Shown: positions 2,882 to 27,925, counted from the stretch's first letter. The stretch is DNA of 35,567 bases from an uncultured virus (IMG/VR IMGVR_UViG_3300013902_000010) (IMGVR_UViG_3300013902_000010:62001-97567); one strand, 5' to 3'. Numbers and translations are program-made. Notes: generated from the sequence alone by a model not told the origin.

Positions 2882-4100
2882 ATGCAAACAAACGTAACCT
2901 TGGAGGAAGCCTTGCAGCGTGCCTCCCGACCTTTGCAGAAAAAGATAATGCATTCCGTGGAGTTGTTGAGGAAAGCGGAAAAGATTGCGCTTTCCTACGA
3001 TAAGACGGATGGCTTCTATCTCACTTTCAGCGGAGGCAAGGATAGCCAGGCTCTTCTACATATAGCGCAAATTGGGGGGGTGAAATTCAAACCTCACATG
3101 AGCCTCACGAGCGTGGACCCACCCGAAGTTATTCGTTTCGTGAAGCGAAATTACCCCGAAGTGGAATTGATAAAGCCAAAGGATTCTATCTATAATATCG
3201 CCATTAAGCGCAAGATTCTCCCTACGATGAGAGTAAGATGGTGTTGTGCGGAATACAAGGAGAATGCCGGTGCAGGAAAAGTTACTTTGATAGGCATTCG
3301 TCATGCAGAGAGTTCTCGTAGAGCCAAACGCAACGAAGTAGAGATTTCTTCCCGAAAGTTTAGTGGCTCGCTCGAAGAATTGGAAGAGTACCGACATGAA
3401 CAACGAGTAAAACGTGCCAAGAAAAAATCGCAAAAGGATGGCATCAATATCATGAATGCCGACCAAGAGCAAACATTGGGCTGCATCCATGGAAAAGAAT
3501 CCCTGCTTATCTCTCCTATCATCCATTGGACGGAGAAAGATGTTTGGGAGTTTCTGAACGGCGTAGTGCAAGTGCCGCATTGCGAACTATACGATGAGGG
3601 CTGGCATCGTATCGGCTGCATCGGTTGCCCGATGTCAAACAAGAAACATCATTTGATGGAAGAGAAACGTTGGCCTCACGTAAAGCGCAACTGGATTAAG
3701 GCTATCAAAGCCATCAGAAATGGGGGGGTATTCAAAGGAGAATATATTTGGTGGAATATCCAAGCGAACCCAAGAATGTGGGGGGGTGGTCGGAAGTCCA
3801 AACCCAAGGTACGTTATCAACAGAGAATGGTTACAACGACCAGAACAATGGCTACGAGTTCCGAGCCAACAACCAAGGCTTCTACATCAACGACAAGGTT
3901 ATGCAAGCCTTTCGACCATTTTCGGGTTTTCTGAAAGCTCCTCGCCTGACCGCTTGACTGAGGAGCAAGAAAATGAAATAGCGGAAAACATCTATGATTG
4001 GTGGATTTCGGGCATCGGCTACCGAGAATGGTATGCCAAGAAGTTCCTTCAACAAAAGATAGATTTCGATTTCTCGGAAGAGAAAGAGGACGATACATAA
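2882..4100 (+). CDS. PAPS reductase-family (CysH/DndC-like) protein; C-terminus out of frame across G7 tracts
   Basis: SGGKDS PP-loop, RWCC and RIGCIGCP motifs in ORF 2882-3934. The plausible natural C-terminus (ENIYDWWISG...QQKIDF) is in ORF 3720-4100. G7 runs at 3074-3080 (in frame), 3722-3728 and 3780-3786. Confidence 0.8.
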
Positions 4101-4133
4101 CATACACAAACACTATAAGACAATGATACAAAC

Positions 4134-4922
4134 ATGAGTCAACTGACACAAAACACCCTTGCCCGCATCGACAAGTGGCTATCCAATGGGGTAAGCCTGG
4201 AAACGATGTTCCCCAAGCTGGAGCAACGCTACCGGATGCAGCTCTGCAAGGAGTTTTATACCCGATGGGTGCAAAACAAGGACATAGACCCTCGCACCAC
4301 CTGCCGCAACATCGCACGACGTGACTACGAGATGCTCTTGAACCAAGCAGGACAGGGCAACCAGGAGGCACAGGCGATGGTGATGGCTCTGCATATCGAC
4401 ATCGACGAGAATGGCGACATTAAGCCTCGCACCATCACCGAACTCAACAATGATGTGGCTGTCTGCAACCACATCATTCGCTTCTTCACTACCGACGAGA
4501 GTCCCCGACACAAGCAGATGTATATCTCTTCCGCCGAATGGCTCATTCGTACGGGCAAGATGCAGAACAACGACCGCTCCGTTTCCAAGGGTATGGATGC
4601 CTTGGCGAATATCTACGGTAACTTCCAGGAGGAGAAGGATGCCACCGAGGAGATGCCGGACATGAGCCGCATTGCCATTACGCAAGACGTGAGCATCGTG
4701 AAGCACGACCGCGTGAACTATACCGATGAGTACAAGCGCAAGATGGCTCGCAAGTATGGTCTTACGCAAAAGGATATGCAGGAGATAGCCGAGGAAGAGA
4801 ACCTTCATTCCGTAGGCGATGGCAAGGTGCCAGACTATATGGAGTATATGGAGGAGATGATGGACGATAAGGAGAAAGGAGGTAATGGCGATGAGGAGCA
4901 AAAAGAGCAACCATTACCATAA
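4134..4922 (+). CDS. Phage protein, candidate terminase small subunit
   Basis: Helical 262 aa ORF upstream of TerL in the same operon. Positional inference. Confidence 0.4.
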   Translation: MSQLTQNTLARIDKWLSNGVSLETMFPKLEQRYRMQLCKEFYTRWVQNKDIDPRTTCRNIARRDYEMLLNQAGQGNQEAQAMVMALHIDIDENGDIKPRTITELNNDVAVCNHIIRFFTTDESPRHKQMYISSAEWLIRTGKMQNNDRSVSKGMDALANIYGNFQEEKDATEEMPDMSRIAITQDVSIVKHDRVNYTDEYKRKMARKYGLTQKDMQEIAEEENLHSVGDGKVPDYMEYMEEMMDDKEKGGNGDEEQKEQPLP

Positions 4923-5139
4923 TAAGGTGCCGCCGTTCCGTCCCGATCCTGAGCACTGGACTCGAAAGGGACCGCATGGGTGGAAGGCGAAGGTGGCTTA
5001 TGAGACGGAGGACGATGCCTGCGAATACTTGCAGTTGCACCCTAAGATTGTGGCGCAAGGGTATCGGGCGTACCAGTGCAAGGTTTGCCAGAAATGGCAC
5101 ATCGGGCACGAAAATACATTAACATTTAAAGACAGATGA
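4885..5139 (+). CDS. Small basic protein with a CxxC...H motif
   Basis: AYQCKVCQKWHIGH; overlaps both neighbours. Confidence 0.55.
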   Translation: MAMRSKKSNHYHNKVPPFRPDPEHWTRKGPHGWKAKVAYETEDDACEYLQLHPKIVAQGYRAYQCKVCQKWHIGHENTLTFKDR

Positions 5140-5803
5140 TAGAACTGAATAAAGTATATAATGAGGATTGCTTGGAGGGCATGAAGCGAATACCCGATGC
5201 AAGTGTGTCGCTCGTACTTACGGATATTCCTTATAACGAATGTAATCGCCCAGATAATGGATTGCGTAGTTTAAATAAAGAATATGCGGATGTAGGTTTG
5301 TTTAATCTAAAAGAATTAACATCTACCCTTTGCAGAAAAACAAAAGGTAGCATTTATATGTTCTGTGGTATTAATCAACTTTCTACTATTCGTTCCGTGA
5401 TGCAAGAGTATAAGCTTAGCACGAGGGTTATAGTTTGGGAAAAGACAAACCCTTCACCGATGAATGGCAATAAAATTTGGTTAAGCGGTGTAGAGCTGTG
5501 CGTATATGGCAAGAAAACGGGGGGGTGTTTAACCTTCATTGTAAGAATACCGTGTTACGTTATCCTTGCGGACATAGCAATATACACCCCACACAAAAGC
5601 CCACTAAACTGTTTCGTAAGCTGATTCTTGCAAGCACTAATGAAAACGATACGGTTTTAGACCCATTTTTGGGCAGCGGCACTACTGCCATCGCTTGCAT
5701 CAAGGAGAAGCGCAACTTCATCGGGTTTGAACTAAACAAGGAGTATTACGACAAGGCTTGCAAGCGCATCGAATTGGAGATGATGCAGCCTACCCTATTC
5801 TAA
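5136..5803 (+). pseudogene. Beta-class N4-C/N6-A DNA methyltransferase, frameshifted at G7 (likely phase-OFF)
   Basis: LTDIPY catalytic motif in ORF 5136-5624; HPTQKP and DPFLGSGTT in ORF 5477-5803. Adding one G to the run at 5519-5525 joins them into a 222 aa protein. Confidence 0.85.
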
Positions 5804-5824
5804 AGATTTCAAAACATTAAGATT

Positions 5825-6148
5825 ATGGCTAAAATTATTTATTTCGGAACGAACGGAGGTTCGGGTCATGCCCCAATAGGTATGGATAAGACTTTGACAC
5901 CAGAGGAGTATTCTATATGGTATGAATGCGATAACGAGATGTGGATTCATAACATTCAAAAGAATCCAGGTCGCCATCTCATCACACATCATGGAGTGGT
6001 TTACACTAACTACGGGGTACCTTTTTCTGTTGATGAAAAGCGATGCATGGACCATACTGAACTATTCTGGGAAGGCAAACATACTGAAGAGGAAATCGTC
6101 AACCTCATAAAAGGCGATAAGTTTCTGAAACGACAATTCAATATGTAA
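5825..6148 (+). CDS. Hypothetical protein
   Basis: 107 aa ORF with an AT-rich leader, within the operon. Confidence 0.6.
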   Translation: MAKIIYFGTNGGSGHAPIGMDKTLTPEEYSIWYECDNEMWIHNIQKNPGRHLITHHGVVYTNYGVPFSVDEKRCMDHTELFWEGKHTEEEIVNLIKGDKFLKRQFNM

Positions 6149-6153
6149 GGACT

Positions 6154-6420
6154 ATGATTGTAATTAGGATTAAAACTTGGAAAGACTGGAAGAAAGATTT
6201 CCTTGACTGGGTAAAGGAACCACGTAAGGCGATTAGTGAATCTTACGTAAATTATATGAATGCTGTTGCACAAACTACCATAGAAAAGCGATTCAAGAAT
6301 ATCCAAAAGGATTTGGGCGTATCGGATGATGTTCTTCAAACCATCATCGACACGGCTCAAATCGCCGTTAGCGACGCAGAGACAGCTGCCCATAAATTGA
6401 TAAATGGGGATTTCGATTAG
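6154..6420 (+). CDS. Hypothetical protein
   Basis: 88 aa ORF starting 5 nt after the previous stop. Confidence 0.6.
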   Translation: MIVIRIKTWKDWKKDFLDWVKEPRKAISESYVNYMNAVAQTTIEKRFKNIQKDLGVSDDVLQTIIDTAQIAVSDAETAAHKLINGDFD

Positions 6421-6479
6421 CTTTCTCAAAAGGATTTGTATTCAGGATAACACTTAACATTTAACATTGCAAGACTCAA

Positions 6480-8480
6480 ATGCTACAACCACATCAAATA
6501 TATCTCAACAAGTTCCAGCAGCAGTCGCTCTACATGGCTGCCAAGGACGAGCGAGTTATCGCTGCCCGCCGTCTGGGTAAGACCGACGGATTGGTGGCTC
6601 CCTACGTTTGGATGGCATCCAACTCGATGCCTGGTATGTTGGGAGCCTGGGTAGCCGTATCTCGCCAACAGGGTTTCGGCAAGACCATCCCTGGTACCAT
6701 GTCGGCGATGGAGCGAATGTTTGGCTTCACCCAAGGCGTTCACTTCGGCTGGGGGCGACCACCCAAACACGTTAAGGAAAGTATCTTCAAGCCGAAGAGC
6801 TACGACAATATCATCTGGTTTGCCAATGGCGCACAATGGGTGCTGATTTCCCTCTCGCAGACTGCTTCCGCCAACTCTTATACTTTCTCGGCGATGGTAG
6901 GCGACGAGGCGCGATTCTTCCCTTATAAGAAAGTAACCGATGAATTGATGCCTGCCCTATCCGGTCAGACTCACCCCTTGGGCAACATCGCATTCACCGA
7001 TTACAATCCGCTCTACAAATCCACCCGATTCCTCAGCGATGCCTCGCTCACCACCAAGGGCAGTTGGCTGGAACGAGAGGAAGAGAAGCTTGACCTTATG
7101 GTGGAGACGGGTATGTTCAAAGGCAAGACTTACCGATGGGTGCAGGAGCAACTGGAGGAGTATGCCGACAAGATTATCTTTTACAACGACCTATTTTACA
7201 ATGCCAAGAAGACTGGGCACACGCCTCGTGTGGTGCAACCGGAGCAAAGGCAGATATATCGTGCCGTGGCTCTCAAGATGATTCGCCATGAGGGACAGTT
7301 TAAGATTCTGCCGAACCATGGTGATAAGCTTACCAAGAATATGGTGGATATGGCGGTAAATTACAAGCTCGTCTCTGCCGAGGATGCGGAGTGCATCTTC
7401 GATTACGAGTATCTAATGACTCCCGACCAATACTTTGAGATGCAGATGTTCGACCGTTCCAAGAAGTTCCACGATGGATATTTGAGGGAGCTACGCCGTG
7501 TCGCCTTCCTGGTTCGCCGTGCCTCTACCCTCGATAATGTGGACGTTTTGGGTGAGAGTTACATCCGCCAAATGAAAAGAGATTTGCCTGCGGCGACCTT
7601 CGCTATTTCAATTCTGAACGTGAAAATCAAGAAGTCGAACGATGGCTTTTATTCCAACCTCGACATCGAGCACGTACATGGTTACATACCCGACGAGATA
7701 GACCCTCTATCCAATGCCAACTTCAAGACCACCAAGGCTACGGGCATCATCGACGGCAAGAAAGTAACCGCCGAAAGTTATCAGCCCGACTTCCAGGAGT
7801 TGGCTGAAAGAAACGATTGCCGCATGGATGCCGACTGCATCATGGACTTGCCTCTCTACATAGCCCTCGATTACAATGCCAATATCAATACGCTCGTGGT
7901 AGGGGAAGTATATGAGCGAGACGGCGTGCAGGCAGTGAATGTTATCAAGAGTTTTTATGTGAAGAATGAGCGAAAACTTCGGGAGCTGATTTCCGATTTC
8001 TCTCATTATTACGCACCAAAGCGAGCCATCAACCGAGACGTGACGTATTTCTACGATGCCACGGCAAAGCAGGGTGCCAGTTACGCCTTGACCGATGAGC
8101 GTTTCTACATGGCGGTAATAAAAGAGTTGGAGCGCAATGGTTGGAACGTGGTTGCGATAGATATGGGTGTGCCGGAGAAGCACGAGATTAAGCATCGCAT
8201 CATCAACGATGCCTTGGCTGGTATCGAATATCCTGCCATCCGTATCAATCAAACGCAAAATCCAGACCTCATCATCGCCCTCCAACTTTGCGAGGTGAGT
8301 ATCGGCTACCAGGGCTTCCGTAAGGATAAAAGTCAGGAGAAGAAAGCCGAGACGGAGGATAACTTGCCATTGCAGCAGAGAACGGATTTCACCGATGCCT
8401 TCGATAGCCTCTTCCTTGGCTGCAAGTATTGGCGAGGAAATATCGGTTGGTTTGTGTTGCCGGATGGAAGGAATGTGTAA
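6480..8480 (+). CDS. terL: Terminase large subunit
   Basis: N-terminal Q motif (LNKFQQ), Walker A AARRLGKT, Walker B MVGDEA, and RNase H-like nuclease acidic motifs IALDYN and TDFTDAFD. Confidence 0.8.
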   Translation: MLQPHQIYLNKFQQQSLYMAAKDERVIAARRLGKTDGLVAPYVWMASNSMPGMLGAWVAVSRQQGFGKTIPGTMSAMERMFGFTQGVHFGWGRPPKHVKESIFKPKSYDNIIWFANGAQWVLISLSQTASANSYTFSAMVGDEARFFPYKKVTDELMPALSGQTHPLGNIAFTDYNPLYKSTRFLSDASLTTKGSWLEREEEKLDLMVETGMFKGKTYRWVQEQLEEYADKIIFYNDLFYNAKKTGHTPRVVQPEQRQIYRAVALKMIRHEGQFKILPNHGDKLTKNMVDMAVNYKLVSAEDAECIFDYEYLMTPDQYFEMQMFDRSKKFHDGYLRELRRVAFLVRRASTLDNVDVLGESYIRQMKRDLPAATFAISILNVKIKKSNDGFYSNLDIEHVHGYIPDEIDPLSNANFKTTKATGIIDGKKVTAESYQPDFQELAERNDCRMDADCIMDLPLYIALDYNANINTLVVGEVYERDGVQAVNVIKSFYVKNERKLRELISDFSHYYAPKRAINRDVTYFYDATAKQGASYALTDERFYMAVIKELERNGWNVVAIDMGVPEKHEIKHRIINDALAGIEYPAIRINQTQNPDLIIALQLCEVSIGYQGFRKDKSQEKKAETEDNLPLQQRTDFTDAFDSLFLGCKYWRGNIGWFVLPDGRNV

Positions 8481-8502
8481 CTTTTTAAAAAGATAGAAAG
8501 AT

Positions 8503-9414
8503 ATGTATATTTCAATTTTAGATTACAGTAGTGGAACTGTCACAATTATCAACGACGAGGATAATGCGACTAAGAATTTGCAGAATGACGATATAGAAGC
8601 TATCCTATATGCCTTAGGATTTAAGGATTCCCAAATCAGCTATATGGTGACAGAGGATGATCCGATGGAAGACGCGTATGGCTACGTTACGCTAAACGAG
8701 TTGGCCGAGGATGCTGATGAAGACATCATAGAGTGGATAAACCGTCAAATCAATGTTTCTGCCGAGAGTGAAGAAACCGATGGGGATAACATTTCAAATA
8801 ACAATAATAATATGGATAACAAAAAAGATTGGGTAGGCGGGACTGCTTCCGTCTTTAAAACATTAGGCGCAAGTAATCATACCGATACCGACCGCCAGCG
8901 TGAAGACTATTATGCCACGGAGCCTGCGGCTACGGAGTGGCTATGCAAGATTGAGAAATTCGATGGTCCGATATTGGAGCCATCGTGCGGCGAGGGTCAT
9001 ATCAGTAAGGTCTTGCTGAAGAATGGCTACGAGGTAGAGAGTCGAGACTTGGTAGATAGAGGTTACGGCGATGGAGGCATAGACTTCTTGGCGATAGACA
9101 ACCTCTCGTGGAACGGCGATATTGTTACCAATCCGCCATACAAATATGCCAAAGAGTTTGTAGAGAAGTCTTTGGCGATTATTCCAGATGGGCATAAGGT
9201 AGCGATGTTTTTGAAGCTTACTTTCTTAGAGGGTAAGGGTAGAAGACATCTGTTTAACACTACCCCCCCCTCAAGGGTTTGGGTATCAAGCAGCCGCTTG
9301 AAATGTGCGCCTAATGGCGACTTCAACGCTTTGCAGGGTAGTGCAGCCGCTTACGCTTGGTTCGTATGGGAGAAAGGTTACAAGGGCGACACCATTGTGA
9401 AATGGTTCAACTGA
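8503..9414 (+). CDS. N6-adenine DNA methyltransferase with an acidic N-terminal extension
   Basis: DYYAT, ILEPSCGEG (SAM binding) and VTNPPY (catalytic) motifs. Possible internal start at 8812. In-frame C8 run at 9263-9270. Confidence 0.85.
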   Translation: MYISILDYSSGTVTIINDEDNATKNLQNDDIEAILYALGFKDSQISYMVTEDDPMEDAYGYVTLNELAEDADEDIIEWINRQINVSAESEETDGDNISNNNNNMDNKKDWVGGTASVFKTLGASNHTDTDRQREDYYATEPAATEWLCKIEKFDGPILEPSCGEGHISKVLLKNGYEVESRDLVDRGYGDGGIDFLAIDNLSWNGDIVTNPPYKYAKEFVEKSLAIIPDGHKVAMFLKLTFLEGKGRRHLFNTTPPSRVWVSSSRLKCAPNGDFNALQGSAAAYAWFVWEKGYKGDTIVKWFN

Positions 9415-9492
9415 TAGCCACCATTTTGCCGACGTTAGCAAAATGAAATTAGGCTATCATTTCCCATCATTGGGAAAATGATAGAGAAATGC

Positions 9493-9536
9493 GAAGGGCA
9501 GAACGTTATCACAACGTCCTGCCCTTCTTGTTTTTG
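9493..9536 (+). terminator. Intrinsic terminator between convergent operons
   Basis: GAAGGGCAG...CTGCCCTTC stem followed by TTGTTTTT. Two further hairpins precede it (9422-9445, 9454-9484). Confidence 0.7.
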
Positions 9537-9635
9537 ATAATTAACCTTTCAAACAATTAGAGATTTTTTCTCCGCCGAGAAAAACATACAGTACAAAATG
9601 AAGAATCATCTTTTTGCTTTCTTACTTATTATTCT

Positions 9636-9949
9636 CTACAACTCTACGAACACGCATAGCTGCTGCCCTTGGCTTGTAAGGGCATTGGCGAGCCTACCCC
9701 CCCGATTGTTCTACTTCGACGTATCGCCGACGTAGGATAGGCGAGGTCGCAAACGCCACCCACGGGACAATCGGTATAACCCTGTTCCGTGGCTTGGCGA
9801 ATGCGAAGGAAGGTATCGCCCGATGCGGCATCGCTCACCATCTGAAGGAATGGCAACGATGTGTCGTATATTCTATATAATGTACCATCTGGATAGAAGC
9901 CGTATCGCTTGCCATTCTTGATGATGGTACCTCGCTTGTATTGTGGCAT
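9636..9949 (-). pseudogene. Orphan C5-MTase target-recognition-like module, frameshifted at G7
   Basis: LRIRQATEQGY...CDLAYPTSAIRRSRTI followed by G7 (9697-9703). G8 gives GGGRLANALTSQGQQLCVFVEL*, 104 aa in total. Confidence 0.65.
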
Positions 9950-9993
9950 TGTCTTTTGCTCTTTTACTTTTTTACCTTTTTACCTTTTTACTC

Positions 9994-10971
9994 TTACAAA
10001 GGTTCATTACATTTCAACTCGTTCACCAACTGCATGTAATCATCGTGCAGGTGGGCTGGTATCTGCCTGTATAATCGCTCATCGAAGAAACTCTTCTTTA
10101 GTACCACCTTGGTTTCTGGTGTGGCTCTCGAAGCTGCCACCAAGTACTGCAAGAACTCTATCAACTCATCAGGCTCGTACCTATCCTTCTTGAATGGCGA
10201 CTGCAAGCCCAGGCGTATCTCGTCGGTCTCGCCCATCACATCCATCAATACGTCCTTAGCACGACAGAACTTAACGATAGGCTCCATGGATACAAAGGTC
10301 TTATAGCCCAAGGCTCTCACTCGTTCCAGGGCATTGATGCGCTCGGCTGTAGATGGAGCCTTACCCTCCATCTCGTCCATGCCTGTGATGGTGAAGCCGA
10401 TGGTAAGGAGGTTGCTACTCCTCATGCTTGTTGTATATATCTCGCTATCTTCATCATCAAGCCAAGCGGTGTTCTTGGTAAGAATGGTAACAGGAATCTT
10501 GAAATAATATATCAGCAGTGTCAGAGCCTTGGTGGTGACAGCAGTGGTGCTTGGCTCGAAAGGATCACACTTGAACGACAGAAATATTCCTTCCTTGCGA
10601 AGTCTTTCTAAGCCTATCTTGTTTACGTCCTTCTCGAAAATCTGAGCGAGAGCCTCGTAAATAGACTCTTGCTCCATCCAATCCCAGTGCTTCTTAATCT
10701 GATTACTGGTTAGCTGGTTAGTCTTGACGTAGGAACGTACCAACTTTTCTTTCAATTCCTTGATAGGTGCCGCCAGCTTTGGCTCATCGCCAAAGGCATG
10801 ACTCAACACGCCTCTTCGGTTATAACAATACTCACACCCATTGCTGCAACCATTGCATAGGTTTATCGCCCACTTGGCATATTCGCCTGCTGGTCCCTTG
10901 GGCTGATAAATGAGGGTGCCATTAATAGGCTGTTTATTCTTTGCAGTTATATCTTGATGATTTTGCTCCAT
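9994..10971 (-). CDS. Radical SAM protein (spore photoproduct lyase-like / phage type)
   Basis: CSNGCEYC (CxxxCxxC), plus CDPF, ILTK, GFTIT and VSMEP motifs. Confidence 0.8.
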   Translation of the reverse strand: MEQNHQDITAKNKQPINGTLIYQPKGPAGEYAKWAINLCNGCSNGCEYCYNRRGVLSHAFGDEPKLAAPIKELKEKLVRSYVKTNQLTSNQIKKHWDWMEQESIYEALAQIFEKDVNKIGLERLRKEGIFLSFKCDPFEPSTTAVTTKALTLLIYYFKIPVTILTKNTAWLDDEDSEIYTTSMRSSNLLTIGFTITGMDEMEGKAPSTAERINALERVRALGYKTFVSMEPIVKFCRAKDVLMDVMGETDEIRLGLQSPFKKDRYEPDELIEFLQYLVAASRATPETKVVLKKSFFDERLYRQIPAHLHDDYMQLVNELKCNEPL

Positions 10972-17148: not shown

Positions 17149-17305
17149 TTATTCATACCCGATGATGATTAAGAAGTCCTTGGCGATGGAAGAGATGGCA
17201 TTGCTAACTCCACCCCCCCCGTATTTCCAGCCTTTGCTCATGCTTGGAATGATACCAATCTCCATCGCTTCTGCCACGGCTTGCGCACGTCCTTACTTGT
17301 AACAT
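17149..17305 (-). pseudogene. TRD-like module G (OFF; G8, in frame as G7)
   Basis: MLQVRTCASRGRSDGDWYHSKHEQRLEIR, then G8 (17213-17220). G7 gives GGGVSNAISSIAKDFLIIIGYE*, 51 aa. Confidence 0.7.
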
Positions 17306-17472
17306 ACTCCTATCAAGTTATCGGTTGTGAGAAACGTGCCGATGCACTGCATCGTCTCGTGGGCAAAGATGAGCGAGACTTGCTTGTCTCGGAAATCATT
17401 CCTGCCCGTAAGCTTGCGCACCTGCTTGGCGTGCTCGGTTCTGGCTTCTCTTATCAGAAATATTCTGTGCAT
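17293..17472 (-). CDS. TRD-like module F (intact)
   Basis: MHRIFLIREARTEHAKQVRK...MQCIGTFLTTDNLIGVCYK*, 59 aa. Resembles module E. Confidence 0.7.
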   Translation of the reverse strand: MHRIFLIREARTEHAKQVRKLTGRNDFRDKQVSLIFAHETMQCIGTFLTTDNLIGVCYK

Positions 17473-17638
17473 AATAAATTGTCTTTTGTCACAGTGGAAA
17501 TCGTGTTGCTCCACGGCTCACGACTCATCCTGTGATATTTGTCTTGATACTTGCACCCCCCGTATCTCCGTAAAGACGGCGGAAGGCTTTTGCCTCTTCC
17601 GTGCGGTAGTGGGTAAGGATGGCTCTGCGCTCACTCAT
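17454..17638 (-). pseudogene. TRD-like module E (OFF; G6, in frame as G7)
   Basis: MSERRAILTHYRTEEAKAFRRLYGDT, then G6 (17556-17561). G7 gives GGCKYQDKYHRMSREPWSNTISTVTKDNLLCTEYF*, 61 aa. Confidence 0.7.
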
Positions 17639-17780
17639 AGATTAACAGAAGCATAGTATGTTGACCATGGTTGTCGTAGAGGCCGCCCCAGCCATCGTAT
17701 CTGGAAGAGAGTGCCGTGGAATACCTCCCCCGAAAACTTATCGTGTCACCTCGCTTCACGAAAGGTCTTGTCTTATTCAT
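17631..17780 (-). CDS. TRD-like module D (intact; G5)
   Basis: MNKTRPFVKRGDTISFRGRYSTALSSRYDGWGGLYDNHGQHTMLLLIYE*, 49 aa, with 8-nt overlaps to both neighbours. Confidence 0.7.
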   Translation of the reverse strand: MNKTRPFVKRGDTISFRGRYSTALSSRYDGWGGLYDNHGQHTMLLLIYE

Positions 17781-17919
17781 AACTTACTAATATTGCTTGT
17801 GCTTTAACCTTAGACGTTGTATTAGGGATGATATTAGCGAATCCCTCCTTGTGATAATGCGCAGTAATCGCCCCACCGATTCTCTGCGAAGGAGTATTGA
17901 TGAAACAGATCTCAATCAT
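17773..17919 (-). CDS. TRD-like module C (intact)
   Basis: MIEICFINTPSQRIGGAITAHYHKEGFANIIPNTTSKVKAQAILVSYE*, 48 aa. Confidence 0.7.
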   Translation of the reverse strand: MIEICFINTPSQRIGGAITAHYHKEGFANIIPNTTSKVKAQAILVSYE

Positions 17920-18063
17920 ACTCTATCAATATCTTTGGTTTATCAACATCATGCCCTTTACCCCCCCAGATATACACAGGGCGATACCCTTGGGCGATAC
18001 CACCACGCCATTTTGTGATGGCGAGTATTTACCGAGGATGATGGGGAAGAAATCTTGCCTCAT
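17912..18063 (-). pseudogene. TRD-like module B (OFF; G7, in frame as G8)
   Basis: MRQDFFPIILGKYSPSQNGVVVSPKGIALCIS, then G7 (17961-17967). G8 gives GGGKGHDVDKPKILIEYD*, 50 aa. Confidence 0.7.
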
Positions 18064-18244
18064 AATTCTATCATTACTACCGTCATAGGATAATGCGCTA
18101 ACGAAAGAATATTGGTTGGCCCGATATTCTCGTACCTTGTGGTAATTGTCGCTGCACACATATCGCTTGTTACGTTGACCGGTTGTTGCCGCCCCCCTCA
18201 TTTAAGAGGCGAGATTTTCCAACCTTGGTTAGACAAAATTTCAT
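18060..18244 (-). pseudogene. TRD-like module A (OFF; G6, in frame as G7)
   Basis: The ATG overlaps the MTase stop (ATGA). MKFCLTKVGKSRLLNE, then G6 (18192-18197). G7 gives GGRQQPVNVTSDMCAATITTRYENIGPTNILSLAHYPMTVVMIEL*, 61 aa. Confidence 0.7.
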
Positions 18245-19644
18245 TCTTCCGAAGCCTTTCTATTCAGATTCTCCAAATATCTCTCACGGAAACCAGAGTA
18301 TTCGCTTGGCTCTGTGCCATCTTGTTTCCACGAAGAATAATCGTAGGTAAACTTGCCGACAATCATTTTCTCGCAGATAACTTTATCCAGTTCCGTAGGC
18401 TTCATTTCCCAGCCATTCACTTCCTCCATCCAAAACGAGAGCCATGTCTTGAGGAACATCGCATCCTCATGCTTGGGTGGAAGGTCGAACTGCACGAACA
18501 ATGCGCTGTCCTTGTCGTTTGCCTTGAGGAATTTTGATACCGCATCGTCTTTCAGGAAATATCTCTTATCCACCTCTTCTTCCAAGACATCCTCCAATTT
18601 CTTTTCCAGTTTGACAGGCTCAGGGAATTGGTAATCGAAAGCCACGTCTCTTCTCATCGAGAGGCAGAATACTCGGTCTCTGTTCTGTGGCACACCGTAA
18701 TCCTTGGCATTCAGTCTCGCCCATCGGTTCACGTAGCCAAGGCTCTCCAACTTCTGCAACCATTTCTTGAAGTCGGGCATGAACTTCTCGCTTACCAGTG
18801 CCGCCACATTCTCTTGCAGGAGATACTTAGGTTGCAATACTTCGATGGCATCGGCTACTCGCCAAAGCAAGGCACTTCGGGTGTCGCTACCCTCTTTCAG
18901 TCCCATCTGCTTGCCAGCCTGGCTGATGTCTTGGCAAGGAGATGAATAAGTAAACAAGTCCACCTCTCTGCCTTGCAAGCTATCCTTTACTTTGTGCCAA
19001 TCTATCTTGGTAATATCGCCAAGTGCTCGGTCGGCATATTGCGGAAACACGAGGTTGTGCATCTGACAGGCGTACTTGTCGATGTCGCTCCAACCCATGC
19101 ACGTCCATCTGAAATCGGGATGATCCTCACGCAAGGCATCAGCCGCCATCAACTGGCTGTCATATCCGCTGAAGGTAGTGATAATCACTTTCTCCTCTGG
19201 AGCCACCTTGTCGCCAGGCTGGATATTCGCCTTGTCGCTTGGGTCTTTCTCCACCGGCATAGACGGCAACACGTCGTCGGGAAAGAAATCATCGAAGAGC
19301 GATGCTTGCTGTGCCTGTGGTTGCTTGGGTGCTGGGTACCAAAGCTGCGAGTAGATGCTTTTCAGCACATCTACTACGATGGAGTTGCCAGCCTGCTTGT
19401 ATTGTTGGCTCGCCGATATAACCATATCATTATCGTTACCTTTTACAGCCTTGCCAAAGATATGTGCCCAAGCATCTTTGCCGAATGCGCTTGATATGCG
19501 AGTCTTGGCAAGGGATATGCTTGCTTGCATCAGGAGGATTACTCCGTCCCGAATGCCCATCAATCTGAAACACTCCTTGGGAGTCAGCTTTCTGATGGCA
19601 TACGATTTTATCGTTCTGTCCTTGAAGTTTATTTTTGTTATCAT
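18241..19644 (-). CDS. Circularly permuted C5-cytosine DNA methyltransferase core
   Basis: Motif order: IX (RKLTPKECFRLMG), X (YKQAGNSIVVDVL), linker, I (FSGYDS variant), II (WSDID), III (GDITKI), IV (SSPCQDIS), VI (QENV), VII (AKDYG), VIII (PQNRDRVF). Confidence 0.9.
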   Translation of the reverse strand: MITKINFKDRTIKSYAIRKLTPKECFRLMGIRDGVILLMQASISLAKTRISSAFGKDAWAHIFGKAVKGNDNDMVISASQQYKQAGNSIVVDVLKSIYSQLWYPAPKQPQAQQASLFDDFFPDDVLPSMPVEKDPSDKANIQPGDKVAPEEKVIITTFSGYDSQLMAADALREDHPDFRWTCMGWSDIDKYACQMHNLVFPQYADRALGDITKIDWHKVKDSLQGREVDLFTYSSPCQDISQAGKQMGLKEGSDTRSALLWRVADAIEVLQPKYLLQENVAALVSEKFMPDFKKWLQKLESLGYVNRWARLNAKDYGVPQNRDRVFCLSMRRDVAFDYQFPEPVKLEKKLEDVLEEEVDKRYFLKDDAVSKFLKANDKDSALFVQFDLPPKHEDAMFLKTWLSFWMEEVNGWEMKPTELDKVICEKMIVGKFTYDYSSWKQDGTEPSEYSGFRERYLENLNRKASEE

Positions 19645-19657: not shown

Positions 19658-19831
19658 TTATAATTCTATCAAAACATTACCAACGTTTCCACTTACCACG
19701 GCATAGGCAGGTTTTTTTGCATTGCTGATACAAAGTTCACTTACACCTCGCTTGTCTGGTGTATCGCGATAAAAGCGAATAGTATCATCTGCTCGCCACA
19801 CCATACGGATAAGGTCTTTTCTATTACTCAT
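19658..19831 (-). CDS. TRD-like module U3 (intact; in-frame A7)
   Basis: MSNRKDLIRMVWRADDTIRFYRDTPDKRGVSELCISNAKKPAYAVVSGNVGNVLIEL*, 57 aa. Confidence 0.65.
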   Translation of the reverse strand: MSNRKDLIRMVWRADDTIRFYRDTPDKRGVSELCISNAKKPAYAVVSGNVGNVLIEL

Positions 19832-19980
19832 ACTCTAATAATATTGCGGGTGGGTGGCTATCTGCCTTTACGCAACGAGATGTTCCATTAAAGAATATCC
19901 GATGCTCGAAACAATCAGAAAGATTGAAATATACCCCCCCCTATTTTGGGGATATGATAGTCTATCTTAATTTTATTCAT
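19824..19980 (-). pseudogene. TRD-like module U2 (OFF; G8, in frame as G7)
   Basis: MNKIKIDYHIPKI, then G8 (19934-19941). G7 gives GGVYFNLSDCFEHRIFFNGTSRCVKADSHPPAILLEYE*, 51 aa. Confidence 0.7.
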
Positions 19981-20155
19981 ACACGATTGCTATTACTGGT
20001 GTCTGCCCACCGCCTAACCCCATTGCCGAGGTGAGCGTGAAGCAAATATCCTTCAAAGAGCAAAAAGTATTCATTCCATGCGCTTGCATATTGCCAAACA
20101 CGGAAGTAGTCTCTATTTTTTTTACGATGATGGCTATAGCCTCTGCTCTAATCAT
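19973..20155 (-). CDS. TRD-like module U1 (intact; in-frame A8)
   Basis: MIRAEAIAII...ICFTLTSAMGLGGGQTPVIAIVYE*, 60 aa. The ORF-track start at 20266 runs through the tRNA, so the ATG at 20155 is preferred. Confidence 0.7.
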   Translation of the reverse strand: MIRAEAIAIIVKKIETTSVFGNMQAHGMNTFCSLKDICFTLTSAMGLGGGQTPVIAIVYE

Positions 20156-20181: not shown

Positions 20182-20254
20182 AGCTGAATACAGGACTCGA
20201 ACCTATGACCTTTCGCTTACAAGGCGAACGCTCTGCCAACTGAGCTAATCCAGC
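20182..20254 (-). tRNA. tRNA-Thr(UGU)
   Basis: Cloverleaf GCTGGAT-TA-GCTC AGTTGGCA GAGC-G-TTCGC CT TGT AA GCGAA-AGGTC-ATAGG TTCGAGT CCTGT-ATTCAGC-T, 73 nt. CCA is not encoded. Confidence 0.92.
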
Positions 20255-21706: not shown

Positions 21707-22903
21707 TTAGTCGTTGAGCAACATCGGCATCACGAGGGTCGTTACCTTGCTGGCAGGATTATCCTCCGTAACCGTAATGGCACGGCTCTTGTCGATGAAG
21801 TTCAATCGAACGTTCTCTGTAGGGATGGCGTTCACGCTATCCATCAGCGTAAGCCAAGAGAAGCCGATAAGGAAACCCTCTGGGCACTCGCTATCCGTAA
21901 CCAACACTTGGTCTTCGCCCGATACCGAGAAGTCGATGTCCTGTGCGGAAATGTCGAAGAACATGCCATCCTTCTTCATCGAAATCAGCTTGGAGCTTTC
22001 GCTACTGAAGAGGGAGATACGCTTGATGATGCTCAACAACTCTCGCTTGTTGCATACCGCATAGTAAGGAGTATCTTTCGGGATAACCGAATTGTAGTTA
22101 GGATATTTGCCATCCACCAAGGTACAAACATACTCAATATCGCCCGAAGCGAAGCGCACCGTCTTGCCGTCGCACTGGATATTGATGTCCTCGCAATCCT
22201 CGAATACGGAAAGGACTTTCAGATACTGGGAGTGAACCAAAATCTTCATGGCTGCACCCTGGCGATAGAAGTCGCTGCCTCCCTGCTCTGGCTTGTTAGG
22301 GTGAATCTGTTTGAAGAGCTTATGGCCGTCGGAAGCCACAAAGACTGCCTCCGAGAAGTCTTCGGTCACGTCGATGCAAAGGCAGTTCATCACTGGGCGC
22401 AACTCATCGGCTGCCACAAACTTGCCAGCGTTGCCCAGAACGGACTTGAATACTGACATCGGGAAGACTACCTCTGTATATCCATCGCCGATTTTTCTTG
22501 CCAAAGGGAAATCGTCTGCCTTGTCGTAGCCGAGCGATACCTTACCTGTCTTCACGTTCTCGCCATCGCCTGTGCAATACTCGATGGTGAAGTCTTGCGA
22601 GTCTTCCGAAATATCGAATGTCACCACGCAATCGCCTGGCAGGGTACCGATGAATGATGTAAGCATAGCCACTGGCAATACGATGTCCTTGCTGTACTTG
22701 CCCTCCACGATGCTGAAAGGCGCAGGGATGGTGAGCTGTGAGTCGGATGTGGCAGATATAAAGAAGAACTTGCCATCGCCATCTCTTCGTTGGGTGAGCA
22801 ACACATTGGCGAGGATAGCCATGCTTGCCTTATTGTCGATGCACTTGGAGGCTTTATGGAGAGCCAGTTTCAGTGCCGCTGCTGAAGAAACTTGAATTTT
22901 CAT
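21707..22903 (-). CDS. dnaN: DNA polymerase III beta subunit (sliding clamp)
   Basis: AILANVLL, DELRPVMNC, VASDGHKL, GKYPNYNSVIP and C-terminal LVMPM motifs. Confidence 0.92.
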   Translation of the reverse strand: MKIQVSSAAALKLALHKASKCIDNKASMAILANVLLTQRRDGDGKFFFISATSDSQLTIPAPFSIVEGKYSKDIVLPVAMLTSFIGTLPGDCVVTFDISEDSQDFTIEYCTGDGENVKTGKVSLGYDKADDFPLARKIGDGYTEVVFPMSVFKSVLGNAGKFVAADELRPVMNCLCIDVTEDFSEAVFVASDGHKLFKQIHPNKPEQGGSDFYRQGAAMKILVHSQYLKVLSVFEDCEDINIQCDGKTVRFASGDIEYVCTLVDGKYPNYNSVIPKDTPYYAVCNKRELLSIIKRISLFSSESSKLISMKKDGMFFDISAQDIDFSVSGEDQVLVTDSECPEGFLIGFSWLTLMDSVNAIPTENVRLNFIDKSRAITVTEDNPASKVTTLVMPMLLND

Positions 22904-23862: not shown

Positions 23863-26800
23863 TTAGAACGGCAAATCGCTCTTGTCTATTTGCGATACCA
23901 TATCGGCACCACTGCCAGGAGTATTGCCATTGTTACCAGCCGAAGAACTCCTTCTGCCCTGCCTACGAGAAACGAAGCTCTTCCAGCGTTCCTCCTCTTC
24001 CATCGTGAGCGATACGATGTTTCCATCATCATCACGATATGGCATTGGGTCAGGCGACTCGGCATATTCTTTTGCGATACGTTTCAGTTCGCTGTAATCC
24101 TTCGGTATCGGGTCCTTGCCTGGACGGTAGAAGAAGAAGACGTGCGAACTGGTCTCTATCCGTCGGATATACTTAGGTTCCACGCTATCATCGTTCTCCC
24201 ACTCCCTGCCTACGAAGTATTCTTGCGTTACCCAGGCTTGCAGCTTGAAGCAACCACGGTGCTTGTCGCTGTTGTTGGATAGCAACTGAGGAGGGTTACA
24301 GGTAATGCCCATATTCTCGCAGTAGTCCTTGATTTTCTTCTTGAACGTGGCACGAGAGTATTCTTTCGACTTGCCCTCACTAGCATCCGCCCAGTCTCTC
24401 ATAAACTCTCGGAACATATCTTCCGTGCAGATAGGCACGCCATACACCTCGTTTCTCGCAAAGAAGTACTCGAAGTATCTCACGATGCTCTCGGTCAGCT
24501 TCTGCACCATCTGACGGCGGCGAACGTTCTGCTGAGGAGCGATGGCAAACGTATGGTACCGCATGATAAACTGCACTGCCAAGGCGCATACATATATCGT
24601 TTGATTGCGGTCGGTATCTGTCAGATGCTCCGGCTCCATACGGAAGTGCTTCATCACGTCCTTGGGCGATCGTGCCGGCTTGCGCTTCTGCGGATTGGCT
24701 CGTGCAAATCTATCCGAGAACGATACCAAGGGAAAACGACCGATGGTGGAATCATCATCATCGCTCAATGGATTGTTGCTCGTGATAACGTGCTCTGGCG
24801 AGTCTTCCATCTTGAAAGTGATAGGGTCTCCAAACTTTCGCTCTACGTCGGTACCATTCGTTACCTTGTTGTAGAAGTATTTCATCGGGAAACTCTTGGG
24901 CTTATCCTCCCAATGCACCACCCTGTACTTGCCAGGGAATAGGAGCAATGCCGACAAACTGAACTTGGCATCCGAGATAGTGGCGAAGCTCTTCATGTTT
25001 ACGCTCAACACGTTCACAGCCGAGCCTACCACCAAGTTTATCATCACGCTCTTGCCCGAACCACCGCTGGCTTGCTTCTCGTCTTGGATATTGTCTTCCA
25101 GGAGATAAGGGCAGATACTCTGCATATCATCCCAGGAGCGATAACAGACACGTCCGATGCAAGAAATCATATTGGCGAAATGGGAATTGATAACCGCCAT
25201 CTCGTCGGGCGACAAAGGCTCCTTGTTTCTCATCGCCGATTGCTCCACCTCCCAAAGGGTATTAGAACATCCTCTGATGATACGCAGGATAGGCCAAAGG
25301 TCTCTCTCCTGCTTGCCTTTCCAATCTACCGTCCATCGGTAGGTCTGGCTCCACTCTTCCAGCTCTGCCCTCATACGACCTATCTCGTCGATGGTGAAGA
25401 CAGGAGAACCGTCCTCGTTGCGCATCTCTTCCTTTTGGTTGATGGCATTCAGCCGTTCTCGATAATCCTGGCTTTCGCTGATAATGAAAGGTGGATTGAA
25501 CACCTTCATCGTGAAGTCGTATGGCTTTCGGGCGAGCGATGGAATGAAGAAGTTTATCTTGTCGTAAGATACCGGTGTTATCGCTTCGGGTGTTATCTTC
25601 AGTGCCACATTATGGAAGTAGAAATACTCCGTATGGGCATCGAATGATTCCGCAAAGTCTATCACCATGCTCTGCAAGCCGCCAGCCGATTTCTCCGAAA
25701 AGTTCTTGTCGATGAGATTGGCGCAATCCGACATCATCTTTCGTTCTTGGTCGTTGTGTCGCCAACTCTGTTCGATAAACTCAAGGAGCAATGTCTTCGC
25801 TGCCTGGATGATGCTCTTGGCATCTATGTATTCCACGAAGCACCTATCAAGGTGGATGTATTGCCCCACGAGGTCGGTGCTGTCAGGGTCTATCATTCTA
25901 TAATATCCGTGGCACGTCATAAACAACCATACCTTTGTAGGCGACACCTTGCAGGTAGGTGGCTTCGGCTTGCCGCTTCTTGGGTCTCTCGAATAGTCGA
26001 TTTCAAAAGGGTCGGTGTTCTTGGCATCCCTTAGCTTGGAATAGAGCGGAATCTTGATGTCATGGTCGAACTTGAAGTTATCGGCATCCGTCATGTGGTA
26101 AGACATCATATAGTCTCTCACCGAGCGAGGGGTGCAACCATACAACCATTTCCACCTTTGATTATACTTGCTGCGGAATGGCTCGGGAAGCATCGCATAG
26201 CATAGGTCGCTATACTTGGAGGCGATGGCTCCACAATCCCTTTGACTGGCGATGTCGTTAGGATAGAGGATAATCACCCTCTCGGCAAATCGCTTCATCT
26301 TCTGATATTGCACGGCATTGAAGTCAAGCTTCTCTTGCCTCCACTGCCCATGGTCGATATACCAGAAGTTTCTCCTACCGATGGAGAAAGCCACATGGTA
26401 CCAACAATATTTCTGAAAGTGATTGTCCGAAAACTTCTCGCTTCGCAAGGAGCGCATAGCGTAATAGATGCTCAATGCATCTTCGGGCGTACGACAAAAC
26501 ACGATGTTCTGTGCCTTGATTTCGCCCGCCTCAATATCTATCTGCTCGGAATGGAAGGTGCCTTTCGGCGTACCGTCCTGTTTCTCGTTCTCTACCCAGA
26601 TTTCTTCTTGCTCGGTATATTGCTCGTAAGGGTCGAATTGTTCGATGGCAGACTTTACTGCCGTCGATTTCTCACTGCGATGGTCCATCGCCCAGGTGAA
26701 CACCTTGTCGCCCATAAGCCACTTGCTTACCTTTCTCACGGTATGTCCCTCGGCTGTGCTGAAGACAATCGGGTCTTGCTGCATGGCAGGACGAAAGAAA

Positions 26801-27555
26801 CAACCGCATGAGCCTTGTGGGGCTATTACGTCAGTAGCGAAGCAAACAAACAGTGGATTCCAAGGCGTGCCATATATCACTTCGCTCACCAGTTGCCCGT
26901 CCCTCACCACATTAGGCAGGGTAACTTGATCTACCGCATAGATACGGAAGTCATTATTGAGCATCGTGGTGTCGAAGTCCTTACCAAAACCAAAGACCGG
27001 CAAGCCTTGCTGCAATGTGACTTCGCACCCCAAGGATGCAAGCTCCTGGGGGTTGAAGTCAGTCTTGGGTAAAAAAGAAAATGTCTCGATTGTTTGGGGT
27101 GAGATGGTACGATAATCCATCTTGGCGAAGAGCATAGGCCACTTGGCTCTCGTCTGCTCATTGTCGCCATATACTCGTACCACAAGGTCGTGGCAGAGCC
27201 TTAGCAAACTGGCTCCGTGCATCGGTAGGTTGCGCATGGCAGCATATAGCTCAAGCGCACCATACCCCGACTTACCCGTCTTGGTACACATCCATCGGAT
27301 AGCACCATGCTCGGCTTGCTTGTTGCCATCTACCCCTATACCATTATAAAGACCGCCTCGCTGGTTCTTATAGATGATGAAGTGAGGGGTCTGCTTGGAA
27401 TGGGCATCATCCGATGCACCATCGTCAGCCACCTTCTTCTGGCAGAACGGACAGAAGCAGGCTATCTGATTTTCTATGTTTTGCTCGTCGGCAGGCTTCA
27501 CCAAGAAAGTCATGTCGATGTTAGCAAGCTGGTTCATTATCGGATGATATAACAT
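23863..27555 (-). CDS. Large primase-helicase-like replication protein
   Basis: N-terminal CPFC zinc-finger-like motif, TOPRIM-like PEDALS/ILYPND segment, Walker A GGSGKS with VHWED and ITSN (SF3-like), and an SDLPF tail. Confidence 0.7.
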   Translation of the reverse strand: MLYHPIMNQLANIDMTFLVKPADEQNIENQIACFCPFCQKKVADDGASDDAHSKQTPHFIIYKNQRGGLYNGIGVDGNKQAEHGAIRWMCTKTGKSGYGALELYAAMRNLPMHGASLLRLCHDLVVRVYGDNEQTRAKWPMLFAKMDYRTISPQTIETFSFLPKTDFNPQELASLGCEVTLQQGLPVFGFGKDFDTTMLNNDFRIYAVDQVTLPNVVRDGQLVSEVIYGTPWNPLFVCFATDVIAPQGSCGCFFRPAMQQDPIVFSTAEGHTVRKVSKWLMGDKVFTWAMDHRSEKSTAVKSAIEQFDPYEQYTEQEEIWVENEKQDGTPKGTFHSEQIDIEAGEIKAQNIVFCRTPEDALSIYYAMRSLRSEKFSDNHFQKYCWYHVAFSIGRRNFWYIDHGQWRQEKLDFNAVQYQKMKRFAERVIILYPNDIASQRDCGAIASKYSDLCYAMLPEPFRSKYNQRWKWLYGCTPRSVRDYMMSYHMTDADNFKFDHDIKIPLYSKLRDAKNTDPFEIDYSRDPRSGKPKPPTCKVSPTKVWLFMTCHGYYRMIDPDSTDLVGQYIHLDRCFVEYIDAKSIIQAAKTLLLEFIEQSWRHNDQERKMMSDCANLIDKNFSEKSAGGLQSMVIDFAESFDAHTEYFYFHNVALKITPEAITPVSYDKINFFIPSLARKPYDFTMKVFNPPFIISESQDYRERLNAINQKEEMRNEDGSPVFTIDEIGRMRAELEEWSQTYRWTVDWKGKQERDLWPILRIIRGCSNTLWEVEQSAMRNKEPLSPDEMAVINSHFANMISCIGRVCYRSWDDMQSICPYLLEDNIQDEKQASGGSGKSVMINLVVGSAVNVLSVNMKSFATISDAKFSLSALLLFPGKYRVVHWEDKPKSFPMKYFYNKVTNGTDVERKFGDPITFKMEDSPEHVITSNNPLSDDDDSTIGRFPLVSFSDRFARANPQKRKPARSPKDVMKHFRMEPEHLTDTDRNQTIYVCALAVQFIMRYHTFAIAPQQNVRRRQMVQKLTESIVRYFEYFFARNEVYGVPICTEDMFREFMRDWADASEGKSKEYSRATFKKKIKDYCENMGITCNPPQLLSNNSDKHRGCFKLQAWVTQEYFVGREWENDDSVEPKYIRRIETSSHVFFFYRPGKDPIPKDYSELKRIAKEYAESPDPMPYRDDDGNIVSLTMEEEERWKSFVSRRQGRRSSSAGNNGNTPGSGADMVSQIDKSDLPF

Positions 27556-27925
27556 TTATTCTTCTATATTTTAATATACCAACGACAATAGACCCAGCGA
27601 AATAGGCGAGGCCAAACTTTCAAGTGTTACCATCCTGCTTTCCAGATTAGATGCTCGCGATATGTCGTTATCGAGTACCAAAGGCTTACTCGCATCACGC
27701 TTCCCGAAGCCTTAAATTCGGGGGGGTACCGCATAGGGTAGGAGCAGTTAGAATCTTTGCTATCTCGGCTCCCCTCCCCGACTGATTCAAATTAAAGCGC
27801 AAGACGTTTCAGCGCAGAATGGGTGGTTACATATTCGCAGGGGCGTTTCCGCTACCCTTCGCCCTTCGTGGGTCTATATCGTCAATATCATTTTTCATAC
27901 TTTGTTATGGTTCTCCCTGATGTAG

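Follow-up and report, generated by a model that had tools for sequence, protein, structure and literature searches.

Why do the long runs of G or C in a phage genome lie mostly in its DNA-modification genes, and what becomes of these genes when a run gains or loses a base? The question arose from a stretch of 35,567 nucleotides, called the window throughout, of an uncultured virus (IMG/VR IMGVR_UViG_3300013902_000010), which comprised bases 62001-97567 of one 97,567-bp contig with 46% G+C. Its modification genes encoded two amino-methyltransferases, a PAPS-reductase-like protein and a C5-cytosine methyltransferase core flanked by mini-genes, which are candidate single target recognition domains (TRDs). 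The G/C homopolymers were probably hypermutable contingency loci that switch DNA-modification genes on and off by slippage: the tracts were longer than composition predicts, were polymorphic in length, and toggled the reading frame with otherwise intact OFF alleles.

Families were assigned by Pfam and PHROG scans covering 120 open reading frames (ORFs). Comparisons were made with G001 (106,521 bp), a near-identical relative (99.4-99.7% identity over the main aligned blocks), with 80 viral contigs found through a search with the terL-like protein (pooled terL loci, 1.62 Mb; G001 is among them), and with 80 loci around the C5 core, which were partly on the same contigs. All compared genomes were metagenome assemblies of unspecified sequencing platform.

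Placement and length spectrum of the G/C tracts

A full scan of the window found exactly 12 G/C runs of at least 6, at all 12 positions proposed by a first-pass annotation and nowhere else. As read on the given strand, they were G7 at 3074, 3722, 3780, 5519 and 27720, C8 at 9263, 17213 and 19934, C7 at 9697 and 17961, and C6 at 17556 and 18192. By strand of the tract, they were:

3074..3080, plus strand: G7 tract in the PAPS-reductase-like gene, in frame, coding for Gly-Gly-Val
3722..3728, plus strand: G7 tract near the 3' end of the same gene
3780..3786, plus strand: G7 tract, 58 nt downstream of the tract at 3722
5519..5525, plus strand: G7 tract in the N6/N4 methyltransferase, OFF as assembled; G8 in frame
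9263..9270, plus strand: C8 tract in the N6-adenine-type methyltransferase, C on the coding strand, coding for Pro-Pro, ON
9697..9703, minus strand: G7 tract (coding strand) in an orphan mini-gene, OFF; one more G (G8) gives a full 108-position match
17213..17220, minus strand: G8 tract in a mini-gene, OFF; G7 in frame; same length in G001
17556..17561, minus strand: G6 tract in a mini-gene, OFF; G7 in frame; G8 in G001
17961..17967, minus strand: G7 tract in a mini-gene, OFF; G8 in frame; G8 and an intact module in G001
18192..18197, minus strand: G6 tract in the core-proximal mini-gene of the downstream array, probably OFF; unchanged in G001
19934..19941, minus strand: G8 tract in a mini-gene, OFF; G7 in frame
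27720..27726, plus strand: G7 tract in a 545-nt region without a convincing ORF, lying 165 nt upstream of where the primase-helicase gene starts

Eleven of the 12 lay in genes with a DNA-modification function by annotation or homology, the PAPS-reductase-like gene being counted by its presumed role, and 10 of these 11 were G on the coding strand (exception, 9263), as had been proposed. The tract at 27720 was G8 in G001, and neither an Rfam family nor a promoter- or terminator-like site was found at it. Also in agreement with the first-pass annotation, the scan found zero runs in four genes:

6480-8480: terL-like gene, the function label being that of the first-pass annotation
21707-22903: dnaN
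23863-27555: primase-helicase gene, 1230 amino acids
33203-34381: rep

The terL-like gene had zero Pfam or PHROG family matches; its distant tblastn matches among GenBank phages included annotated large terminases (27-31% identity).

The whole genome had 17 G/C runs of at least 6, i.e., five beyond the window. Two of the five were in orphan TRD-like mini-genes (genome 26834 and 37977), one was an in-frame G6 in a 1115-amino-acid tail-region ORF, one was a C8 near the end of a 145-amino-acid ORF of unknown function, and one was a C10 (genome 53510-53519), the longest tract of the genome, which was C8 in G001 and lay between a 192-amino-acid ORF and the point where a BT4734-type primase gene ends, in a stretch with no recognisable gene. 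By gene class, eight of the 17 runs were in mini-genes (9697, 17213, 17556, 17961, 18192 and 19934 in the window, and the two orphans beyond it), three in the PAPS-reductase-like gene, one in each amino-methyltransferase, and four elsewhere.

With the orphan modules included, 13 of the 17 runs fell in 6.75% of the genome (binomial P = 1e-12). In regions defined before the tracts were viewed, that is, the modification genes by Pfam and PHROG plus the C5 array, 10 of the 17 fell in 6.0% of the genome (binomial P = 8e-9), and control runs were not enriched in the same gene set (10 of 159 G/C runs of 4-5; 2 of 19 A/T runs of at least 7). In the 80 terL loci, 183 of 216 runs of at least 7 fell in the 5 kb upstream of terL, which is the modification-gene region, and none fell in terL (160 kb) or in bins -10 to -7 (290 kb). 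An even spread over structural and replication genes, the outcome that would have spoken against the idea, was seen neither in the genome-wide placement test nor in the 80 relatives. The description of the tracts as almost confined to modification genes stood as a strong enrichment (13/17) and was too strong as an exclusive placement, with 4/17 outside recognised modification genes.

The counts of G/C runs of lengths 4 to 10 in the genome were 145, 14, 3, 8, 5, 0 and 1, a non-geometric spectrum with a drop of about tenfold from 4 to 5 and a rise again at 7-8. Pooled over the 80 terL loci, the counts for lengths 5 to 11 were 504, 59, 113, 69, 29, 2 and 3. The 17 runs of at least 6 were not above the first-order Markov expectation (mean 17.75, n = 60), and the excess over composition was in runs of at least 7, of which 14 were observed vs. 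a mean of 4.3 (maximum 9) at order 1 and of 0.62 (maximum 3) at order 3. An order-5 Markov null was dropped, as it reproduces the runs by construction. On the G strand, all 14 runs of at least 7 in this genome were followed by T and then a purine. A fixed post-tract motif was rejected, because the next base varied among relatives (T 119, C 85 and A 12 of 216, with A under-represented).

Codon choice bore on the main rival explanation, according to which chance G runs at Gly-Gly sites slip and persist where gene loss is cheap, so that the tracts would reflect decay of dispensable accessory genes under relaxed purifying selection and not a switch. Gly-Gly was written as GGGGGG at 5 of 14 sites in modification ORFs vs. 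1 of 111 elsewhere (P = 4.8e-5), and GGG was the rarest Gly codon. This bias argued against tolerated hot spots, as did the lower number of runs of 6 than of runs of 7 and 8, and the lack of tracts in other apparently dispensable genes (GNAT, LysR-type, acyl carrier protein, ketosynthase, MazG, ThyX and many small ORFs). Decay was considered unlikely on balance, with the points in its favour given below.

Tract lengths and reading frames

Of 13 G/C tracts comparable with G001, eight differed in length, vs. 2 of 58 A/T runs of at least 6 and 0 of 12 G/C runs of 5 (Fisher P = 4.7e-6). Over positions 4068-18472 (99.65% identity) there were 41 substitutions and 6 indels, 5 of the 6 indels being in tracts. 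These differences could be homopolymer errors of sequencing or assembly, with only the tract positions real. The provenance of the genomes would allow for this, all being metagenome assemblies, and in X1, the one public run found to contain the sequence, where 79% of the sampled words were present as low-depth contigs of a related strain, two contigs ended or started at the tracts at 9697 and 17213; low coverage could also cause these breaks. One X1 contig had two extra C at 17961, and breaks and extra bases together were no more than a weak hint. Generic homopolymer error was argued against because A/T runs rarely differed and G/C tracts often did. Furthermore, lengths over 80 independent contigs tracked the reading frame, in-frame lengths recurring with period 3 in homologous tracts of the fam1 module and of both amino-methyltransferases. 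An explanation by error was thus extremely unlikely, and neither placement nor spectrum hinges on the exact lengths, in line with the earlier statement that placement is immune to miscalled runs.

The tract-bearing genes other than the mini-genes were:

2882..4100, plus strand: PAPS-reductase-domain gene, with a main ORF at 2882-3934 (350 amino acids) and a tail in another frame at 3720-4100
5136..5803, plus strand: beta-class N6/N4 DNA methyltransferase, in two ORFs (5136-5624 and 5477-5803) split at the G7 tract
8503..9414, plus strand: N6-adenine-type DNA methyltransferase (phrog_799, E = 1.5e-65), intact, with an NPPY motif visible in the translation

The N6/N4 methyltransferase matched PF01555 on its C-terminal half (E = 3e-27) and phrog_67 on both halves, and one extra G gave a 224-amino-acid frame. 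Its tract was G9 in G001, likewise out of frame, and AAAT-G8, in frame, in the relative L073. In a paralogous N6/N4 allele, ATGT-Gn, the gene was in frame with G7 (24 loci) and out of frame with G6, G8 or G9 (8 loci). In-frame dominance at this allele (24 of 32 tract-bearing loci) argued against decay. It would also be needless if decoding ignored the frame, i.e., if slippage at the level of RNA or the ribosome gave some in-frame product from any allele and the tracts set the level of expression. Slippage of this kind had no direct support, would explain why out-of-frame alleles are common and yet undamaged, and was rated very improbable, as DNA lengths differed between near-identical genomes and efficient transcriptional slippage in bacteria is described mainly for long A/T runs.

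The tract at 9263 in the N6-adenine-type methyltransferase was C7 in G001, where it split the gene; among relatives, C8 was in frame (3 loci) and C9 split (2 loci). Other members of the phrog_799 family had a G tract near residue 155, with G8 in frame at 6 loci and G6, G7 or G9 split at 14. The position of the tract in this family thus depended on the lineage: a G tract at about residue 155 or, in the lineage that includes this window, a C tract at about residue 255. Two tract sites within one family pointed to recurrent origin, and their occurrence in two lineages weighed against tolerated hot spots. Split methyltransferase alleles aligned through to the end of the query. The radical-SAM gene of this genome had no tract.

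The PAPS-reductase-like gene matched PF01507 (E = 7.6e-19; 68.8 bits vs. a gathering score of 22.5) and phrog_424 (E = 3.4e-38), with a weak match to BrxP (3e-12), and all NCBIfam equivalogs scored far below their cut-offs; its role in DNA modification is a presumed one. As assembled, its first tract was ON, as was the phrog_799 methyltransferase. In orthologs, the site at 3074 was either a G7 short by one base, with a broken frame (L010), or an interrupted run, GGGAGGGG or GGCTGGGG, and the site at 3722 was G5, G6, G7, G8 or an interrupted run. The C-terminal tail (3720-4100) was conserved in orthologs and one G out of frame as assembled, and loss of one G at 3722 or at 3780 gave a 407-amino-acid frame; by sequence, these two tracts would jointly set which C-terminal frame is read. 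The gene was wholly absent from the near-identical relative (L005/G001), both flanks, at about 2849 and 4068, being clean. Because of this absence, the gene (2850-4067) apparently behaves as a mobile cassette in the modification region.

C5-methyltransferase core and mini-genes

Within the window, the C5-methyltransferase core, the mini-genes and a neighbouring tRNA gene were:

18241..19644, minus strand: C5-cytosine methyltransferase core, 467 amino acids, circularly permuted, TRD-less and tract-free here
17152..18236, minus strand: downstream array of seven mini-genes of 40-60 amino acids each, delimited by hidden Markov models (HMMs) and stop/start overlaps; in minus-strand order, fam2 18066-18215, fam3 17915-18057, fam4 17776-17919, fam6 17634-17780, fam0 17460-17635, fam0 17299-17472 and fam0-like 17152-17235
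19661..20155, minus strand: upstream array of three mini-genes, fam18 19976-20155 (intact), fam10 19827-19980 (split) and fam9 19661-19831 (intact)
9644..9955, minus strand: orphan TRD-like mini-gene, fam1, cut at its tract; HMM positions 4-88 of 108
20181-20254, minus strand: tRNA-Thr (anticodon TGT) at the upstream edge of the array, the only Rfam match

A 97-amino-acid ORF at 19973-20266 ran through the tRNA, and the real upstream module was therefore taken to start after the tRNA.

The core matched PF00145 (E = 8.8e-52; profile positions 23-218 of 324), TIGR00675 (162.9 bits, above the cut-off) and PDB 4dkj (E = 2e-34), and contained catalytic motifs I-VIII, including PC and ENV. Motifs IX-X came first and I-VIII after them, in place of the usual C-terminal position of IX-X. 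Core residues 189-348 matched residues 112-274 of the 4dkj chain (motifs IV-VIII), and the first 100 core residues matched motifs IX and X of solved C5-methyltransferases, residues 16-56 and 66-91 aligning with chain residues 334-374 and 365-390 (weak if taken alone, i-E of about 1.7 and 1.6e3). No core sequence matched chain region 275-333 of the solved structure, where a TRD would lie between motifs VIII and IX. A structure predicted for the core from a 38-row alignment was too poor for a fold search (mean predicted local distance difference test, pLDDT, 57.4). The core ORF was kept as a single unit in the 80 loci.

Two observations on the core stand apart from these results. In about 20 relatives (L128-L162, locus position 5588) the core itself had a G6-G7 tract, and the core of L146 stopped at 280 amino acids; judging from these alleles, the catalytic subunit may switch too in some lineages. 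In Streptococcus phages Javan129, 131, 141 and 172, the core matched, in two pieces, a pair of adjoining genes annotated as 'methylation subunit' and 'DNA-cytosine methyltransferase', and this gene pair may be another split C5 enzyme. A search of GenBank phage proteins with the C5 core returned ordinary C5-methyltransferases, and a near-identity search of positions 2800-20300 against GenBank phages gave zero matches.

The mini-genes flanked the core on both sides and had 40-110 codons, a conserved hydrophobic-x-Tyr-Glu/Asp ending, and a stop that overlapped the next start. About 17 module families were clustered from the intact ORFs of the 80 related loci, and the HMMs were built from these families. 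In this genome, the HMMs matched three modules upstream of the core, seven downstream, the orphan at 9644-9955 and orphans at genome 37,818-38,104; visual comparison with a module of a relative, which it resembles, added one more orphan at approximately genome 26,780-26,905. Eight of the approximately 14 mini-genes bore tracts and six were tract-free.

All tract-free modules of this genome were intact, and all six tract-bearing modules of the window were broken. In the downstream array, the three tract-free members were intact and the four tract-bearing members were frame-broken. A change of one G lengthened the HMM match of each broken module, to full or near-full length in five, and modestly at 18192 (from 62.6 to 70.5 bits with one more G). 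No other lesions were seen in these six modules. The tract of the fam1 orphan at 9697 was G9 in G001; fam1 modules of relatives were intact with G8 (10 loci) or G11 (1 locus), and split or partial with G6, G7 or G9 (12 loci). Around the core of the 80 loci there were 935 modules (median 12 per locus), of which 180 had a tract of at least 6 (77 intact, 103 split or partial) and 755 did not (640 intact, 115 broken).

The mini-genes were candidate single TRDs supplied as separate polypeptides. This reading was taken because of their size, their position, and their ending where core motif IX begins; they also presumably resemble TRDs in motif. A predicted complex of the core with one intact module supported docking: the conserved C-terminal strand of the module lay on core residues 13-20, just before motif IX. 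The interaction prediction score from aligned errors (ipSAE) was 0.71, vs. 0.00 for the best control, three runs agreed in at least 41% of contacts, and the pLDDT of the partner was 37-42; 116 of 157 solved complexes scored at least this high, as did 2 of 215 mismatched pairs. Since core and module together amount to a solved fold in split form, the docking may reflect likeness and not binding. Modules were separate ORFs, and in the loci that were inspected the sequence upstream of the core showed no fusions of module and core.

On the favoured reading of the tracts as switches, slipped-strand mispairing during replication of the phage DNA would add or remove a G, and the gene behind the tract would be shifted into or out of frame. 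The mini-gene modules would be subunits acting in trans on the single TRD-less permuted C5 core, specificity would follow the module, and each modification specificity would toggle independently, so that every burst would contain genomes with different methylation repertoires. The likely benefit would be bet-hedging across host strains, methylation protecting against restriction-modification and being a liability where defences attack modified DNA. In the fullest form of this proposal, a 'methylome lottery', the permuted core accepts about a dozen trans mini-TRDs, many of which are toggled independently by polyG, together with the two amino-methyltransferases and the PAPS-reductase-like enzyme; this form was given an even chance.

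Several results weighed against switching, or against the part assigned to the modules. About 8 of 12 gene-internal tracts were OFF here, near the 2/3 expected without selection, and 77 of 180 tract-bearing modules (43%) were intact in relatives, not far from one third. Tracts were present in only 180 of 935 modules, and hence most of the toolkit of the family does not switch. The N6/N4 methyltransferase was OFF in both near-identical genomes. In 11 of 31 loci without a run of at least 6 between the N6/N4 halves, the halves were still in different frames, which may stem from paralog mix-ups in the choice of high-scoring segment pairs. Of the 4/17 tracts outside recognised modification genes, three varied in length too. 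The fam0 profile had zero matches to PDB sequences at E up to 10, and only one longer protein (154 amino acids) was found to contain the fam1 module.

Part of this evidence favoured tolerated hot spots: the ON fraction was near-random (77 of 180 modules; about 4 of 12 gene-internal tracts here), the absence of the PAPS-reductase-like gene from G001 indicated that these genes are dispensable, and the variation of three tracts outside modification genes indicated that slippage is generic. The OFF alleles had no secondary lesions, which together with codon choice, spectrum, recurrence and in-frame dominance argued for contingency loci and against decay. The first-pass proposal that the whole modification toolkit is a set of selected contingency loci was retained in part. 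Hypermutable, frame-toggling tracts were supported by the G001 comparison and by the period-3 lengths, while 'whole' was overstated, with the core, six mini-genes and the radical-SAM gene tract-free, and 'selected' likewise, being a reading drawn from codon usage, from tract sites that recur and from OFF alleles that stay intact.

Genome context, consequences and known systems

Other annotated genes (Pfam and PHROG) were for tail, lysis, replication and Rep3, and a reverse transcriptase lay outside the window. A BT4734-like primase domain pointed to a host that is probably one of the Bacteroidota. Among the structural genes (genome 20411-21897, minus strand) there was also an acyl carrier protein gene together with one for a beta-ketoacyl synthase, auxiliary functions whose pairing is unusual in a phage. 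The reverse transcriptase (PF00078, phrog_1423) belonged to a diversity-generating retroelement at genome 6612-8036 (minus strand), with a pair of 109-nt repeats (genome 7849-7957 and 8719-8827) that were 90% identical. All 11 of the 11 mismatches were at A of the copy adjacent to the reverse transcriptase, the template repeat, and the variable copy lay at the 3' end of a 1975-amino-acid tail-region gene (genome 8706-14633). From these repeats, the phage appears to have another means of hypervariation, separate from the tracts, which targets a tail protein and adsorption, beside the one for DNA modification.

Phage methyltransferases are usually seen as fixed anti-restriction equipment; if they were stochastic switches, a lineage would be a cloud of epigenetic variants. 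If the lottery held, a lineage would sample up to thousands of modification states (2^13, with the 13 tracts here) and could move from hosts defended by restriction-modification to hosts whose defences are modification-dependent, and back. This would bear on the persistence of gut phages across strain-diverse hosts, on methylation motifs used for linking phages to hosts, and on host range from metagenomes, where consensus assemblies would freeze one arbitrary state and call many genes pseudogenes. The mini-gene architecture would be a natural modular set of C5 recognition units for one scaffold, making the question of how a TRD sets its target directly testable. The system would then be a phage counterpart of the bacterial phasevarion, with a subunit architecture not described for C5-methyltransferases.

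In the phasevarions of Haemophilus, Neisseria, Helicobacter and Moraxella, the phase-variable genes are mod genes that belong to Type III systems and to some of Type I (e.g., PMC7383803, PMC6902483). Both there and here, a simple-sequence repeat in a methyltransferase gene slips and the frame toggles, and there the methylation of a motif switches at random. Unlike phasevarions, the phage methyltransferases were orphans, with no restriction endonuclease family among the 120 ORFs (Pfam and PHROGs) that could be a cognate enzyme; there were many parallel tracts, mostly in recognition-module mini-genes and not in the catalytic gene; and the presumed purpose is to protect phage DNA and not to regulate host genes.

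Homopolymer tracts of phages that lead to reversible frameshifts, with mixed populations, are reported for Campylobacter Fletchervirus phages, where hypermutable polyG tracts are in receptor-binding genes (Sorensen et al. 2021, Cell Rep 35:109214), and for T2/T4 contingency loci, where tracts are spread over many gene classes (bioRxiv 10.1101/2025.10.21.683753). The tracts studied here were alike in kind. Unlike in either of those cases, 13/17 were in modification genes, and the G6 in the tail-region ORF, which was in frame, was the only one of its kind, so that receptor-binding genes were not their seat. The nearest single-gene precedent is a Bordetella phage methylase gene with a polyG tract, which, according to the citing preprint, was not studied further (Liu et al., cited in bioRxiv 10.1101/2025.10.21.683753). 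Full-text literature searches, supplements aside, turned up neither a phage with tracts concentrated in modification genes nor arrays with one mini-gene per TRD.

Multispecific C5-methyltransferases of the Bacillus phages SPR, phi3T and rho11s were reportedly described by Trautner and colleagues in 1996. These enzymes have tandem modules of about 40-60 residues in one polypeptide, between motifs VIII and IX. Like them, the present system had one catalytic scaffold and several short modules, each presumed to have one target; unlike them, it had no tandem TRDs, each module being a gene of its own with start and stop, the core was permuted and TRD-less, and many modules were slippery. M.AquI and M.EcoHK31I are two-subunit C5-methyltransferases, and M.BssHII has a permuted motif order; activity rebuilt from two polypeptides in the former and permutation in the latter are thus paralleled by the split and permuted layout here. 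Unlike the one fixed partner of M.AquI and M.EcoHK31I, there were about 12 alternative partners per genome here (median of the 80 loci), encoded in the arrays that flank the core. As kinds, phase variation of methyltransferases and polyG tracts in phages are known already; what is new is their toolkit-wide, per-TRD form.

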